Below are positions 11,493-22,792 of a stretch of DNA of 26,240 nucleotides, piece after piece. The notes beneath the pieces were generated by a model. It made no database searches. It worked only from the letters and a program-made list of their open reading frames with translations, and had not been told where the DNA came from. Position 1 is the first letter of the stretch. Every line of letters starts with the position of its first letter. The stretch covers positions 1 to 26,240 of IMG/VR virus record IMGVR_UViG_3300032319_000216. One strand, given 5' to 3'. Source of the stretch: a virus (Duplodnaviria > Caudoviricetes). The translations under genes and the position numbers were made by a program.

Positions 11493-12014
11493 TTATAACG
11501 CCTTTGCGGTATTAAAGCCCGTGCAGACGTAACCGCAATGGGCAAAGAGTTTGAAGGTTCTTTCAACGTCAATTCTGACGGATTGACCAACCATGCAAAT
11601 GTTGGCTCCAGAGTTTTTTGCCCAAAGCTCAAATTCACGCAACAAGAGGATAGCAGCAGCACCGCCACGAGCAGATTGCTTAACCCACCACCCCATGTCA
11701 CGGGCCAGCAACGACTCACTAAAAAAGGTTTTAGAAACACATCCATAAAACCCTCCAAGCACTTCGTCGTTGCGAACGGCCAGCCGAAACCACCTGTCGG
11801 GCGATCCGTTGCCTGACATTGACAACTGTTCAATCAACTTTTTGTTGTCAAGCGGCAAGTTTGAATAAATAGAATGGGCGTGAATTTCTCGCGCCACTTC
11901 CAACGTGCCCGCAAGATACTTTGGCTCATACGGAACAATGGCAATGCTGCAGCCGAAGCGCTCGGCAATGCGGTCGAAAGCGTTTACTGGCATGTCCATG
12001 TAGTGTCCCGTCAA
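11493..12014 (-). CDS. GNAT-family acetyltransferase-like protein
   Basis: WWVKQSARGGAAAILLLREFELWAK..GA and terminal KLFAHCGY match GNAT motifs A/B. The start may be ATG at 11999. Confidence 0.8.
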   Translation of the reverse strand: MTGHYMDMPVNAFDRIAERFGCSIAIVPYEPKYLAGTLEVAREIHAHSIYSNLPLDNKKLIEQLSMSGNGSPDRWFRLAVRNDEVLGGFYGCVSKTFFSESLLARDMGWWVKQSARGGAAAILLLREFELWAKNSGANICMVGQSVRIDVERTFKLFAHCGYVCTGFNTAKAL

Positions 12015-17170: not shown

Positions 17171-18178
17171 TTAGATGGTGGCCGAGTTAAACCCGGTCAC
17201 TTTAACCATCGATGACGGCTTTGTAAACACCAGTTCGCCCATGGTCAGCAGCACGCCCAAATAACCGAGCTGGCCGTTAGACACAAGCGACTCAAAACCC
17301 GTGAACGCAAAACTTGCGTTTTCGTGCAAATACAAATTCATGTAGTTGCTGTTGTTCAGGAACAGCGTGCCTTCGGGGCAGTAGTAGTCCGGGTAAATTG
17401 GCACGCCGCTAACCATCAAAGCACGAAACGACGAGCGCGGGCCGTCGCCGGTGGCGTCAAAGCTAGACCCGGGCGTAATGTTGTACTGCTCTTGACCAAT
17501 AAAGTCTTGTTGCAGCAACGTCCAGGTGCCAAAACCCATCAAACCGTAAGTCGGCACCTCGCCGCAGTTTTTGACTGCGCCGTTTATGTACTGGGCCACG
17601 TTTTGCCGAGTGGGGTTGACCGATCCCGCGCTATACAGTTTGGCTTTCCAGAACGTGTTGGTCGTCCGGTTGATGTTGCCAAACGTGGTTACGTTTGTGC
17701 CATCGTCAATACCGGCAGACAGTGAGCTGAACGCTTGAGGATTGCCAGTGTTGGAATACAAGGCGGTAGCCATTGCGTCAGACATGACGTTACCGGCGTC
17801 ATTCATGACGGCTTCAATCCGAGGCACAACCGCATAGTCAATTTGCACCGCAGCTTCCGTGCCAATAAACGGAATGGGAACCATTGCCATTTTGAGCGCA
17901 TATTCAGCGTCTTGAATGCCGTTTTGCTGCGACGGAATTTGGAACGATGCGTCATAACCTGACCATACGTTTGTCGTCATGCGAGCGCCCTGTACCGGCA
18001 CCGTGATCGGGCTGATACCGCCGCTTGCAAGCTGTGCATTGGCAATCGCCGACGCCAAAAACGGGCTAGCGTTGTAAATTTGCACCGTCACAGTGGGCAA
18101 AAATGCCCGGCGCGTGATGGCGGTCAATTCGGCTGCTGCTGCGCCGGACGGGGTAATACCAATGCCAGGAAGTGCCAT
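17171..18178 (-). CDS. Major capsid protein
   Basis: 335 aa, GGAG SD, follows the scaffold-like gene. ELTAITRRAF, FGNINRTTNTFWK and GVPIYPDYYCPEG fit HK97-fold capsids. Confidence 0.85.
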   Translation of the reverse strand: MALPGIGITPSGAAAAELTAITRRAFLPTVTVQIYNASPFLASAIANAQLASGGISPITVPVQGARMTTNVWSGYDASFQIPSQQNGIQDAEYALKMAMVPIPFIGTEAAVQIDYAVVPRIEAVMNDAGNVMSDAMATALYSNTGNPQAFSSLSAGIDDGTNVTTFGNINRTTNTFWKAKLYSAGSVNPTRQNVAQYINGAVKNCGEVPTYGLMGFGTWTLLQQDFIGQEQYNITPGSSFDATGDGPRSSFRALMVSGVPIYPDYYCPEGTLFLNNSNYMNLYLHENASFAFTGFESLVSNGQLGYLGVLLTMGELVFTKPSSMVKVTGFNSATI

Positions 18179-18189
18179 TTTCTACTCCA

Positions 18190-18720
18190 TTAACTGGGCC
18201 GACGCCCGCGTAGTTCGTCAATAACTTGATACGCCTGTTGCTGGGCGTGTGCTCTGAGGTTTCCGCCAAACTCTTTCAAGTCGGGCGTGCTAGGAACTGT
18301 AAATTTGCGCTGTTGGTGAAACGCCGCCGGGGTAGGCTCTGCTGCTTTGCGCGACGCCATCAAAAATTCGGCAGCGGTTTCGTGCGACACAAGCTGTTTT
18401 TCCACCATCATTTTTTCAAGCGCGGGCAAATCGTTTTCGTTCATGCCCTTGACTTGCAAGGCTTTTTTGCGGCCTTCTTCAATCTTGGCTTGCAATTCAC
18501 GCTGTTGGTGGGCCTTTTCCAATTCGGCCAAACGATCCAAATGCGGTTTGAAATGCGAACTCAATTGTTGAGGAATGTCAATCTCTGGAATTGCGGTGTC
18601 AGGGTTGGCAGTTTTGGTGAGCTGCAAAAACCCGTTGCGCGTTTTAGGATTGGTAGCCAACGTGCTTGCCAGCTCGGCAAGCGCGTTGATTTCTTCGGTG
18701 GTGCGGCCTTCAAGTGACAT
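18190..18720 (-). CDS. Putative scaffolding protein
   Basis: Charged coiled-coil protein directly upstream of the capsid gene, ending in a basic C-terminal helix. Confidence 0.55.
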   Translation of the reverse strand: MSLEGRTTEEINALAELASTLATNPKTRNGFLQLTKTANPDTAIPEIDIPQQLSSHFKPHLDRLAELEKAHQQRELQAKIEEGRKKALQVKGMNENDLPALEKMMVEKQLVSHETAAEFLMASRKAAEPTPAAFHQQRKFTVPSTPDLKEFGGNLRAHAQQQAYQVIDELRGRRPS

Positions 18721-18752
18721 GATGATTCCTGCTGACGGTCAGGGGTTGAAAA

Positions 18753-18932
18753 TTACTTGGTGCCGCCGGGCTTGCGCAATTTCAGCGTAGGCTCGGCTTT
18801 GTCCATGTTGTTTTTGGTCGCGCCACCAATTTCGGGCAACCGAGGCGGATTCAAAATGGAACCATTTCGCTTTGCCGTATCGGTGGGCATGCGAATAGGA
18901 TAGCTTTTGGGTGCAAACAGTTTGGTAACCAT
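18753..18932 (-). CDS. Small basic Pro-rich hypothetical protein (59 aa)
   Basis: AGGAG SD before ATG at 18932 (MVTKLFAPK...). Confidence 0.7.
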   Translation of the reverse strand: MVTKLFAPKSYPIRMPTDTAKRNGSILNPPRLPEIGGATKNNMDKAEPTLKLRKPGGTK

Positions 18933-18947
18933 GATTACTCCTATCAA

Positions 18948-19376
18948 TCAGTGCGGCATCATAGGTGGCATGCCACCGGGCATTTGCGGGGTCATACCGG
19001 CACCGGCAGCGCCTTGCATGGCTTGAGCAACCGGCGACGGTTTCAAACCTTGCATCAATTGTTGCAATTCTGCCGGAATAAGGTCTTTGGATTTGTTCCG
19101 CGCCCCGCCAAATTTCCGAGACAGCGTTGACAACACAGACAACACTGCGCGGCCTTCTTCGGATTCAGACCCAAGCGCGGGCAAAGATTGCTCCATCAAG
19201 TCCATGGCAATACTGAGATTGACCATTGCAGACTGTTTTTCGCCGTTGGCGGGCTGCGGTGTGGTCATGGGCGAACCTGCGGGAGATTCTGCGCCGGGCA
19301 ATTGAGGCGGCATTGCGGCTGGCGGGCCTTTAACCCCGCCACCGCCCGCTATTAGTTGCATCAAGTCTGGACTCAT
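18948..19376 (-). CDS. Hypothetical Pro/Met/Gln-rich protein in the head module
   Basis: ATGA overlap with the upstream gene; helical core flanked by low-complexity ends. Confidence 0.7.
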   Translation of the reverse strand: MSPDLMQLIAGGGGVKGPPAAMPPQLPGAESPAGSPMTTPQPANGEKQSAMVNLSIAMDLMEQSLPALGSESEEGRAVLSVLSTLSRKFGGARNKSKDLIPAELQQLMQGLKPSPVAQAMQGAAGAGMTPQMPGGMPPMMPH

Positions 19377-19987
19377 ACCGGGACTTCTTCCCAGCTAAAA
19401 CTAAACCACATGCCAGCAACCGATGCTTGAGTTGGAGACACCCACAAAGCATATCCGCCAGGAGGCAAAATAATTGAGCCTTCTAAATCAATCACAGACC
19501 CGATGCCGTTTTGAGTGGCCGTAGCGGTGTTTTGCACAAACACGTCGTAAAACGGCGCGGTAGGCAAGGTTGCCGAAATGGACGCCTGAATTACGCCGGG
19601 GCCAGAACCGGTAAACGCGTTGCGAACGGCAAGCGGCGTTGTGTTGGTAACGGCGGTTGTTGAATTGAACCCGGTGGCAATTGCAAACGCTTCAACCTGC
19701 GTAGATTGAATGACCGACTGCATGATGGAACATTTGTTCAACACCGCGTTTACCGTACTGGTAATCGGGTTAAAAATGCACAAACCCGTGTAAGTGGTTG
19801 CCAAACCGACCGTGGTGGTGGCAACGGCTTGCGAAGCGGCTTTGTAAATGTTTTTACGGTACGTTTGTTCGTAGTACCGGCCATGCAACTCACTTACCAA
19901 AGCGTCACCCTGCTTGCCAGCGCGAGCAACAATGGTTTGCGAATCGCTGTTGTTTTGCGGGCCAGTAACAATCTGATTTGCTGCCAT
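19373..19987 (-). CDS. Hypothetical beta-rich protein (204 aa)
   Basis: AAGGA SD; Thr/Ala-rich strands, GSIILPPGG and terminal WEEVPV. Confidence 0.75.
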   Translation of the reverse strand: MAANQIVTGPQNNSDSQTIVARAGKQGDALVSELHGRYYEQTYRKNIYKAASQAVATTTVGLATTYTGLCIFNPITSTVNAVLNKCSIMQSVIQSTQVEAFAIATGFNSTTAVTNTTPLAVRNAFTGSGPGVIQASISATLPTAPFYDVFVQNTATATQNGIGSVIDLEGSIILPPGGYALWVSPTQASVAGMWFSFSWEEVPV

Positions 19988-19996
19988 GGTTGATCC

Positions 19997-20254
19997 TTAC
20001 GACAATCGAATAAATGTGGGGTCAAGATATGTAAACACATCTTGCCGCAAAGTGTTTACGTCTTCAACGGGCGTGCGGCCAGCAGCCATTTCGCTTACCA
20101 AAGCGTTAAGCACCCGCAATTCAGACAAAATTCCAAACAAAATGGCGGTTTGCGACGCATTGCCACCGTCAATCGGCAAGTCTTGCGTATTGCCAAGCGC
20201 GTCCTTTGGATAAAGGACATTGATAAGCGTTGGCGTGACGGTTGGCTTAGACAT
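19997..20254 (-). CDS. Hypothetical protein (85 aa)
   Basis: Starts 2 nt after the upstream stop; amphipathic helix ILSELRVLNALVSE. Confidence 0.7.
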   Translation of the reverse strand: MSKPTVTPTLINVLYPKDALGNTQDLPIDGGNASQTAILFGILSELRVLNALVSEMAAGRTPVEDVNTLRQDVFTYLDPTFIRLS

Positions 20255-20256
20255 TT

Positions 20257-20868
20257 TTACGCCAAGTACACAATCGGCGCGTTGTTGGCCGTAAACGTGG
20301 TTGGAGTCGTGATGCTGGTTGGCACCGTCCCAAACGTACCGCTCACGGTTGTCGAGACAATTTCAATGAATGTCGATGCTGCCACCGTGCGAATTGCGCC
20401 AGCGGTAGTACCGTTGCCTTGCACAGCAATGAAATACTGTTGCGGGCCGTACAAAAGCACTGAGCTGATGGTCGCGCCAGCGGCATTCAGCACAAGCGAA
20501 AATTCTTGGAACGTGTTAGCGCCAGAAAGCACTGCCCCGGCTACCGCGCTGTTGGCAACCAAGTTGCCGCGAGAGTCGTACAACGCAACAAGAATGTTGT
20601 CAGTGGTAGCGGTGCCGCCTTGCAACACGCCAATTTTGGTGACGGTGCGGTTGTACGGTACAAAAATGTCCGTGACCCACAATTGACCCGCAACGTCAGT
20701 AGTGTTGGTGCCAAGCGAGCCGTAAGCCACGCTGCCAATAGAAATGTTGCTGACGCGGAGCTTACCGCCAATAGTCGAATTGCCGCCGTTCACCGTTTGG
20801 GCAGCAATAAAATTGTTTTCGGCCTGGGTGCCTACCGACTCACCAACCTGTATGTATCCGTTTGGCAT
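20257..20868 (-). CDS. Hypothetical beta-sandwich putative virion protein (203 aa)
   Basis: GGAG SD; Thr/Gly/Val-rich; VALYDS.G and YFIAVQ strands. Confidence 0.75.
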   Translation of the reverse strand: MPNGYIQVGESVGTQAENNFIAAQTVNGGNSTIGGKLRVSNISIGSVAYGSLGTNTTDVAGQLWVTDIFVPYNRTVTKIGVLQGGTATTDNILVALYDSRGNLVANSAVAGAVLSGANTFQEFSLVLNAAGATISSVLLYGPQQYFIAVQGNGTTAGAIRTVAASTFIEIVSTTVSGTFGTVPTSITTPTTFTANNAPIVYLA

Positions 20869-20886
20869 TCCGTACTCCGTTCACGA

Positions 20887-20917
20887 GAAAAACATGGGCC
20901 GGGTCTGACGCCCCGGC
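20887..20917 (-). terminator. GC hairpin after the micro-ORF; possible weak terminator or attenuator
   Basis: GCCGGG-GCGTCAGA-CCCGGC followed by CCATGTTTTTCT; the U-tract is offset from the stem. Confidence 0.45.
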
Positions 20918-20924
20918 TGTCGAA

Positions 20925-20966
20925 TTAACGACGAGCCTTGCGGCCCTTGCGCGACTTGCGTGCCAT
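20925..20966 (-). CDS. 13-aa Arg/Lys-rich micro-peptide MARKSRKGRKARR
   Basis: AAGGAG 6 nt upstream of ATG, TAA stop, its own upstream promoter, and uniform CGC/CGT/AAG codons. Confidence 0.7.
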   Translation of the reverse strand: MARKSRKGRKARR

Positions 20967-21024
20967 GGTTCACTCCTTGAACATTGGGGCCACCTGAAAA
21001 GGCAAGCAGCCATACCTTGCGCGC

Positions 21025-21052
21025 AATGTAACGCGACTTGGTATGTTGTCAA
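21025..21052 (-). promoter_or_regulatory. Sigma70-type promoter for the micro-peptide and capsid operon
   Basis: TTGACA (21052-21047), 16-nt spacer, TACATT (21030-21025); just downstream of the portal terminator. Confidence 0.65.
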
Positions 21053-21072
21053 ACTTGCGTTTTGGGTCAACC

Positions 21073-21097
21073 AAAAAAAATCCCGCACAAAGGCGGG
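21073..21097 (-). terminator. Rho-independent terminator after the portal gene
   Basis: CCCGC-CTTTGT-GCGGG-A followed by 8 T. Confidence 0.75.
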
Positions 21098-21121
21098 CAA
21101 GGGGGGAGGCAACGCACAAAA

Positions 21122-22792
21122 TCAGGTTTGTTTGGGTGCTTGTTTGGAGGCTTCCATTGCTGCTTTAGCCTGGGCTGCTTTGGCTTCTGCCGCCTCAATC
21201 TCCTCCAATTCCCGAAGTATAACTTCTTTGCTTGGAGGGTTGACCATCTCAATCAAGCGGCTGCGTTTGATGGCTTTGGCTTCGTAAAGTTCTGCCGCCA
21301 AAGATTTTTGATCTTCAACAAACAACGGCGAATTGCTGTGCGCGTCAACGCGCAACGTAGCGCCTTCTGGAATCTGGTCAAGCGCAAAGTACCGAATGTC
21401 CTTGCCCCTTTGTATATGCAATTTGCTGTCATCGTACCGCCGCAACGCTTTGAAATACTTGGTCACAATGGCGTCAAGACTATCTTCCACCAAAAGCGCC
21501 CGCTTTTTGATGCGCGCCGAACCCAAGCGAGCCAGCTCAGACGTTTGACGCCCGGAGCGCACGCCGCTTTCGCCTCGGCCCATCAGCAAATTGTGCAGGC
21601 CCACGGCTTCGCTAAACATTTCGTCAATGAACCGGATTTCGGTAAACACATCGGGTGGAATGTCCGGCTTGAATTGATGCACCTTAGACATTGGATCCGA
21701 CATGGCAAACACGCCGCCCGATTTGTTGAGCGCAAAATCCATTTCATCCAGCGCGCCGTTAAACGCTTCCAGCGCGGTAGGCGGGTTGACTTGTTTCGCC
21801 AGCAAGTCGCGCACCTGATCCATGCGTTCGTTGCGATAGTTTTGAAGCCCTATCAAGCTGGCAACAATACTTCTGCCCCAAAAATAACCCTGTTGCGGGT
21901 CGGGGCATATGTGGCCGTAGGGATGCTCACGGGGCAAGAAAAAATTTGGCCTGTCGTAAATGGTGACGTTTTGATCTGCGCGAGTAACAACGCGGTAGTC
22001 TTCGTCGTCGTCGTCCCAAATCCAGAGTTCTTCCATCAGGATTTGTTCTGCGCCCATAGACGGTGTGTAATCCACACGACCATCCATGGCATATGCTGCG
22101 TTGCCTCGCGCCGTGTTGCCGGGTGTCACTGGCCCGCTACCAATTTGGTTAGTCACAATGATCTGCCGCAACGCCTGCGGCATGTCGTCTCCCTTAGCGG
22201 CTGGTTTTGCCTCAAGTTGCGACAAAATTTGATTTTTGTTTGGGTGCGCGTGCAGTTCGTGCTCAAGCTGCGACTTGGTAATTGTGTACCGATGCGCTAT
22301 GGCTTCTTGCCTGTCAAGGTAGTTAACGTCCTCGCGGTACACGCCAATGCAGTGCGGCTCGACAACATAAGGCGCTACGTGAGTGCCCCTGACAATTAAC
22401 TTTATGATAGCGCTGTTGTACACAAGCGCCCACTCCAAACCCATGCCAAACGTGATGTCGCCATTGGATGAGCGCCATTCTTCGTTGACGGCTTTGCTGA
22501 CCGTAGAGGCCCGATCCCATTCTTCTTTTTGCACGCTAACTGGAAATTCGCATGAAAAACGCGTGGTGTCTGCGCTGTAAAGAAATGCCGTCAACGTGTC
22601 AATGGCCGGGTAAATTTTGTTGTAGGGCGTTGATCCGTACTGCGGAGCGCATCCGTACAAGTAGTAATGCTTAAGTTCGTCGTAGGTTTTTTTGCGACGT
22701 TCTACCGACTGGAAACAAACATCCAGCACTTCTTGATAGAGTTGGTCGCGGGCAAACAATTGCTCCGGCGTGTTGCCTTTTGGAATTTTCAT
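21122..22792 (-). CDS. Portal protein
   Basis: 556 aa between terminase and capsid; YNKIYPAID, YFWGRSIV..LIGLQ and GESGVRSG patterns fit podoviral portals. Confidence 0.85.
   Translation of the reverse strand: MKIPKGNTPEQLFARDQLYQEVLDVCFQSVERRKKTYDELKHYYLYGCAPQYGSTPYNKIYPAIDTLTAFLYSADTTRFSCEFPVSVQKEEWDRASTVSKAVNEEWRSSNGDITFGMGLEWALVYNSAIIKLIVRGTHVAPYVVEPHCIGVYREDVNYLDRQEAIAHRYTITKSQLEHELHAHPNKNQILSQLEAKPAAKGDDMPQALRQIIVTNQIGSGPVTPGNTARGNAAYAMDGRVDYTPSMGAEQILMEELWIWDDDDEDYRVVTRADQNVTIYDRPNFFLPREHPYGHICPDPQQGYFWGRSIVASLIGLQNYRNERMDQVRDLLAKQVNPPTALEAFNGALDEMDFALNKSGGVFAMSDPMSKVHQFKPDIPPDVFTEIRFIDEMFSEAVGLHNLLMGRGESGVRSGRQTSELARLGSARIKKRALLVEDSLDAIVTKYFKALRRYDDSKLHIQRGKDIRYFALDQIPEGATLRVDAHSNSPLFVEDQKSLAAELYEAKAIKRSRLIEMVNPPSKEVILRELEEIEAAEAKAAQAKAAMEASKQAPKQT

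Follow-up and report, generated by a model that had tools for sequence, protein, structure and literature searches.

Layout of the portal-head region

The DNA analysed here, referred to as the window, is a virus contig of 26,240 bases with a CheckV completeness of 72%. On its minus strand, a micro-ORF coding for a basic peptide is located between an SU10-type portal gene (PF23899, E 1.8e-12; phrog_1216) and a block of head genes, with the following features.

21122-22792, minus: SU10-type portal gene, upstream of the micro-gene
21073-21097, minus: putative terminator-like hairpin (stem 21097-21082) and run of eight T after the portal stop, by consensus match
21052-21025, minus: sigma-70-like promoter TTGACA-16-TACATT, by consensus match, predicted +1 near 21018
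20988-21018, minus: H-type pseudoknot, PK-A (stem 1, 21018-21015 with 21002-20999; stem 2, 21011-21005 with 20994-20988)
20978-20973, minus: Shine-Dalgarno AAGGAG, 6 nt 5' of the ATG and outside the pseudoknot
20966-20925, minus: micro-ORF MARKSRKGRKARR, from the ATG at 20966 to the TAA at 20925, 13 codons, 13 aa
20917-20898, minus: GC hairpin with a CGUCA-containing loop and a weak U-tract (z -2.69)
17171-20868, minus: downstream head block, with ORFs of 203, 85, 204, 142, 64 and 176 aa, then the 335-aa major head protein

The initial annotation of this region had described a 13-codon ORF with Arg or Lys at 8 of 13 residues behind an AAGGAG Shine-Dalgarno, a TTGACA-16-TACATT promoter, a terminator-like stem with a T run after the portal and a GC hairpin, and each of these was located in the sequence. 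Its 5' hairpin does correspond to a base-paired element, but this element is stem 2 of the H-type pseudoknot at 21018-20988. Without its Met, the peptide has 12 residues, a mass of 1.47 kDa and eight basic side chains. Scans of the window alone were at chance level for promoters (6 found vs 7.3 expected) and for terminators (17 found vs 19.1 expected), so that the support for both signals comes from the relatives described below. The terminator-like hairpin after the portal gave a fold z of just -0.90.

The micro-gene had also been placed next to the capsid gene, and in fact six ORFs and 2.7 kb intervene before the major head gene. In the window, the transcription unit can be called self-contained only tentatively, the gap between the micro-ORF stop and the next gene, that for the 203-aa protein, being 56 nt and a U-tract being present after just 6 of the 22 hairpins of this type. 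The window scan found no promoter in this gap, and the micro-gene may therefore be the first cistron of an operon.

The major head protein (335 aa, gene at 18178) matches phrog_9953 (E 2.4e-27) and is acidic, with a median net charge of -7 in 42 loci and a range of -5 to -9; no solved structure related to it was found. The 176-aa ORF is probably the scaffold, judged by position only. Atlas searches with the 203- and 142-aa neighbours gave unnamed viral clusters and no named family, and the net charge of the 142-aa protein is -1 to -11. The 203-, 85- and 204-aa ORFs, which lie between the micro-gene and the head operon (19373-20868, minus), are present in just 8/60, 1/60 and 5/60 relatives, respectively; they look beta-rich by eye and are possibly decoration proteins. 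The 64-aa basic ORF before the scaffold (18753-18947, minus) is found in 29/60 relatives with a net charge of +6 to +8, and is another core-protein candidate. Elsewhere in the window, an acetyltransferase gene is located among the virion genes (11493-12014, minus), and a nuclease/phosphoesterase-like gene beside the endolysin gene (1403-2488, minus).

Conservation and coding signal of the micro-ORF

Portal searches yielded 163 loci, one relative coming from the single-protein locus search and the rest needing the alignment search. With the window added, the portal end was complete in 152 of the 164 loci, and 600 nt or more of downstream sequence was available in 136. Dereplication at <90% portal identity left 61 representatives, the window among them. 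The micro-ORF was defined as Shine-Dalgarno-led, 8-22 aa long, with at least 45% K+R and at most 600 nt from the portal stop. Such an ORF followed the portal stop in 57 of the 61 representatives, window counted, compared to 0/716 other windows (mostly coding), 0/61 reverse strands and 3/1220 shuffles with the same filter. The four representatives missed by this strict filter each had a basic micro-ORF under a looser one, which also gives background hits. Among the genome-bin loci with downstream DNA, 7/8 carried the micro-ORF, down to 36% portal identity. Four of the nine genome-bin matches are betaproteobacterial, which makes such bacteria putative hosts. When the peptide pattern was searched alone, 120 matches were obtained, and all 80 of those with sufficient flank fell in the head module. 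The initial annotation had named as its check a conserved short basic ORF with a Shine-Dalgarno and synonymous variation downstream of homologous portals, and such an ORF was found.

On the stretches read from the cultured phages Mx8 and Mx9, a TM7 phage and locus L289, we found neither the ORF (head strand) nor the pseudoknot motif. We found no cultured member and no virion proteome of the peptide-bearing phages. In the GenBank records of two relatives, the annotation covering the micro-genes consists of ORFs on the opposite strand alone (L002, 8246-8506; L003, 4740-5038). In about 30 main-clade loci, a basic gene of about 55 aa with an ADQPR motif and a net charge of +4 to +11 precedes the micro-ORFs; it lies directly 3' of the portal stop (L002, 8109-8264 region), where it is unannotated in GenBank, and it is not present in the window.

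The micro-ORF was present in one copy in 23 loci, two copies in 33 and three copies in 1 of the 57 positive loci, giving 34/61 multi-copy representatives. Multi-copy loci occupied several separate branches of a quick portal tree, which suggests repeated selection for dosage. In L092 (3040-3114), a tRNA gene is found immediately after the second micro-ORF.

In total, 92 ORFs coding for 79 distinct peptides of 9-18 aa were collected, all with their own Shine-Dalgarno, ATG (92/92) and stop, the latter being TAA in 88/92. Arg and Lys make up 64% of the residues and Asp and Glu less than 1%, with a net charge of +6 to +9, and the C-terminal residue is Arg or Lys in 91/92. Residues that could serve as a hydrophobic or aromatic anchor are lacking, and the peptide is not amphipathic. 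In a set of 22 copies picked as 13 aa long, with a MAR start and a pseudoknot upstream, the uncorrected pN/pS was 0.39, a value that is indicative since the copies are selected and related; the most frequent swap was K/R, and R3, R6 and R9 were kept in 22/22, 22/22 and 21/22 copies, respectively. In these copies, differences by codon position were 1540 at the third position vs 679 and 657 at the other two. Of 1989 same-residue codon pairs, 919 differed. The codons used, which are common ones (CGT, GCT/GCA, GGT), and the TAA stop resemble those of the major head gene and not those of the portal, TAA ending 39/43 major head genes vs 25/61 portal genes. The x-R-K rhythm of the initial annotation was recovered as a bias in dipeptide order, with 169 RK vs 50 KR compared to about 93 each in shuffles, shared ancestry being a confounder of this count.

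Three loci of one clade, L004 (7836-7898), L087 and L089, carry a short acidic/hydrophobic N-terminal extension ending in Leu-Glu-Ala before the basic core. This ending presumably resembles a Glu-specific head-protease site, in parallel with the T4 head protease; no protease gene was identified in these loci.

Conservation, synonymous variation, codon and stop use and tandem copies together indicate that the micro-gene is real, selected and built for high expression, in agreement with what had been proposed. It is conserved, and its product is a putative further form of the small basic viral nucleic-acid-binding peptides.

RNA structures and promoters around the micro-ORF

The PK-A detector flagged 49 of the 61 representatives, with a false rate of 70/980 in shuffles and 73/919 in random windows. 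One false match (L050) was dropped and three loci were re-registered, and the 48 remaining sequences were aligned with plain MAFFT. In this alignment, 93.8% of the PK-A cells were paired, compared to 80.2% in shuffles and 40-60% in slid controls, and 8 of the 11 pairs showed two-sided change; relatedness is not fully removed by these controls. The sequence of stem 2 is retained, including the wobble pairs at its centre, and that of stem 1 is variable. The 3' end of PK-A was located 17-24 nt before the ATG in 47/48 aligned loci, leaving the Shine-Dalgarno free. In the seven loci for which a promoter was called strictly, PK-A starts 3-13 nt past the -10 box, the distance in the window being 7 nt. 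In the window itself, stem 1 is short (4-5 bp) and a plain 9-bp hairpin competes with it. Energy folding by itself, with a method that cannot model pseudoknots, lent the 5' structure no support (z -0.44 and -1.60).

Independently, we searched with a permissive motif in which neither stem 1 nor the ORF was defined, and obtained 120 matches. An ATG-led basic micro-ORF after a Shine-Dalgarno was present in 56 of the 62 pseudoknot-capable matches vs 0 of the 58 incapable ones, and one further pseudoknot-capable match had a GTG-led micro-ORF. With a covariance model of PK-A, 14/15 matches were at the micro-gene position; seven peptide-bearing representatives (L014, L026, L047, L048, L050, L061 and L131) gave no match to this model. 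PK-A is thus common, yet not universal, among peptide-bearing loci. An Rfam search of window positions 18500-21500 gave no match at E<=1, and a search of 20 loci at the gathering score gave one tRNA and nothing else; PK-A, having no Rfam match, is a new RNA motif. A translational riboswitch was considered and rejected, as PK-A does not sequester the Shine-Dalgarno (17-24 nt gap, 47/48 loci); the alternative anti-Shine-Dalgarno fold was judged by eye.

The strict promoter scan found sites in just 15/57 loci. Unpositioned TTGAC counts were weak (35/57 vs 147/488), and TTGAC or TTGAA at a similar spacing before the pseudoknot was counted by eye in 12/26 rows. Of the promoter scans of the relatives, the positional one given below was the informative one.

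On the 3' side, the CGUCA-loop hairpin was found in 14/57 loci, including the window. Its stem covaries freely: among 21 sequences selected because they carry CGTCA, pairing was 82.9% and 5/5 pairs had changed on both sides. A U-tract (at least 6 U in 8) follows in the 6/22 cases given above: the loop is conserved, but there is no conserved terminator. In the main clade, this hairpin is replaced by a second H-type pseudoknot, so the 3' structure is clade-dependent. The second pseudoknot was detected in 36/57 loci, one of which (L029) is in reality PK-A, vs 282/1080 shuffles (26%) and 22/305 portal windows (7%), and was not detected in the window. It lies 10-100 nt past the last micro-ORF stop and ends just before TTGACA; its stem 1 varies freely, and one loop is A-rich.

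The start of the head operon was scored in 33 of the 34 loci with the 142-aa gene directly next. TTGAC or TTGAT was present 35-75 nt before the 142-aa gene in 27/33 main-clade loci, compared to 0/32 for the scaffold gene, 0/11 for the 64-aa gene and 2/28 for the head gene at the same position. Judging from these sites, transcription of the main-clade head operon likely starts at a separate promoter beyond the peptide ORF. In L034, L073, L074, L083, L138, L159 and L161, an inverted repeat (TTTGTA...TACAAA type) is found immediately before the 142-aa gene, where it overlaps the promoter-like site; it is a candidate operator.

Proposed role of the peptide and comparison with known systems

From its composition, position and copy number, we propose, with about an even chance of being right, that the micro-gene product is a late, bulk-made polycation that binds DNA and partly neutralises it during head assembly or packaging. 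Late transcription would proceed from the upstream promoter and start at the pseudoknot, and the pseudoknot and the 3' structure would stabilise the short mRNA to give a high output. Removal of the Met, which is expected before Ala, would leave the 12-residue, 1.47-kDa peptide, of which hundreds of copies would finally be located inside the head or close to it as it fills, bound to DNA. The peptide would thereby act as phiX174 J and adenovirus Mu do, without belonging to either. We calculated that about 900-950 copies would offset 10% of the charge of a genome of 36-38 kb; for comparison, the genomes of two named relatives, both complete, measure 34 and 36 kb. The location in the head module, the dosage, the codon and stop usage and the acidic major head protein all argue for this role.

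Several points count against it. In tailed phages, DNA is pumped into a shell that already exists, and we know of no entry route for the peptide into such a shell. The bias of RK over KR is more order than plain charge requires, and an ORF of this kind was not found on the head strand in what was read of the distant relatives Mx8, Mx9 and L289. The conserved loops in the flanking RNA suggest a specific binding that DNA neutralisation leaves unexplained. Spermidine leads to heterogeneous packaging and ejection in phi29, according to the available part of PMC4797306, citing Keller 2014, so that a strong condenser could hinder the motor.

In an alternative that we regard as unlikely, the product is an arginine-rich RNA-binding peptide that tunes late expression, its target being either ribosomes or structured phage RNA, namely the pseudoknot or the CGUCA-loop hairpin of its own transcript. 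Precedents are the arginine-rich motifs binding hairpins, as in lambda N, and the autoregulation of T4 gene 32 through a pseudoknot. The tight linkage of pseudoknot and peptide (56/62 vs 0/58), the constancy of stem 2, with its central wobbles, next to a variable stem 1, and the biased RK order speak for it. However, the pseudoknot stops 17-24 nt before the ATG with the Shine-Dalgarno uncovered, the seven loci listed above keep the peptide without a match to the pseudoknot model, and repeated duplication is not obviously needed by a regulator.

Less probable still is a head-assembly cofactor on the acidic inner face of coat or scaffold, similar to phiX174 J and without bulk charge neutralisation. 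Acidic partners do exist (-5 to -9 for the major head protein, -1 to -11 for the 142-aa protein), R3, R6 and R9 are nearly invariant in the selected copies, and the Leu-Glu-Ala extension precedes the basic core in three loci of one clade; but an anchor of hydrophobic or aromatic residues is missing from the peptide, its length varies from 9 to 18 aa and its copy number from 1 to 3.

We consider it very unlikely that a structured RNA of about 120-150 nt (pseudoknot, ORF, and hairpin or second pseudoknot) is the working product, with an ORF that mainly loads or holds ribosomes. Covarying structures do flank the ORF, PK-A on the 5' side and the CGUCA hairpin on the 3' side, with the second pseudoknot in 36/57 loci. 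Conservation is nevertheless at the level of amino acids and not of codons (919/1989 same-residue codon pairs differ), the 3' structure differs among clades, and ARAGORN gave 0 genes, tmRNA or tRNA, in the window and ten loci. A host-directed polycation, active in nucleoid compaction, in nuclease shielding of phage DNA or in late envelope weakening, is more doubtful again: the high charge and expression signals suit any bulk polycation role, but the location in the head block in 80/80 matches, the distance of about 20 kb from the endolysin gene of the window and the lack of amphipathicity speak against it.

The Arg/Lys-sensing leader peptide attenuating the capsid operon, which the initial annotation had offered as its alternative, is largely refuted and now scarcely credible: in the window, the ORF comes first after a promoter, and a hairpin with a weak U-tract separates it from the next gene, but 27/33 main-clade loci have a promoter-like site past the last micro-ORF copy and ahead of the head operon, so that a leader could not regulate that operon, and the micro-ORF copies are in tandem with separate Shine-Dalgarnos, use common codons and lack a conserved terminator (U-tract in 6/22).

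Returning to the bulk counter-ion, we tentatively put forward a broader picture, in which we have rather less than even confidence, of a widespread 'genetic polyamine' of tailed phages: a polycation of 9-18 aa whose mini-mRNA has new pseudoknots as caps and whose synthesis equals that of capsid protein, with hundreds packed per head and a copy number tuned by gene duplication. To our knowledge, it would, if true, be the first stand-alone core peptide in motor-packaging phages. These phages are thought to balance the charge of their genome by host ions and polyamines and not by basic peptides of their own, and a conserved phage-encoded polycation would change this picture. The micro-gene also falls in a blind spot, as gene callers drop the ORF, and trypsin destroys a peptide that is two-thirds Arg/Lys, making it invisible to tryptic proteomics. 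Apart from the peptide, the pseudoknot linked to it counts as a new RNA motif. We found no literature on such peptide strings or on a portal-linked pseudoknot in a search that covered subscription journals thinly, and small-protein catalogues may contain these ORFs; the available part of PMC10681747 held nothing specific to the peptide or the pseudoknot.

Among known systems, attenuator leader peptides share with the micro-gene a short ORF rich in particular residues, a promoter before it and a hairpin after it, whereas the micro-gene occurs in tandem copies, has neither a conserved terminator nor biosynthetic genes downstream and, in the main clade, is followed by a promoter-like site. The mRNA-like domain of tmRNA likewise combines an H-type pseudoknot with an A-rich loop, a short ORF and a hairpin, as here, where a second pseudoknot is added in the main clade; unlike tmRNA, the micro-ORF has its own Shine-Dalgarno and AUG and no tRNA-like domain.

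The J protein of phiX174 (Microviridae) is also very small, basic and Gly-containing, and is encoded by its own gene among head genes. It is longer than the peptide described here and has a hydrophobic/aromatic C-terminal end that docks on the coat. J belongs to a tail-less ssDNA phage and lies beside the coat gene F, whereas the micro-gene belongs to a dsDNA phage with terminase and portal, and its peptide of 9-18 aa, in 1-3 copies, ends in Arg or Lys in 91/92 cases without a hydrophobic end. Small size and a strongly basic character are shared, but membership in the Microviridae J family was rejected on the context, the portal being SU10-type and the major head protein that of a tailed phage. 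According to the available part of 10.64898/2026.07.25.740675, J binds the coat protein F during genome packaging.

Adenovirus protein X/Mu is short and arginine-rich like the micro-gene product and helps to condense dsDNA, and the virion contains 100-300 copies of the 19-aa Mu peptide; Mu, in contrast, comes from a eukaryotic virus, whose protease releases it from a precursor of 79 aa (PMC7998265, available part). Membership in this family was rejected as well, since the micro-gene peptide is a primary product with its own Shine-Dalgarno, ATG and stop, and a short extension is found only in L004, L087 and L089. As to polyamines and Mg2+, the accessible part of PMC7096446 places motor-packaging phages without a capsid R-arm outside the capsid-charge rule and gives Mg2+ and polyamines as their counter-ions. 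The job proposed for the peptide is the same, to offset the charge of the genome in such phages, but those counter-ions are host metabolites and the peptide is encoded by the phage.
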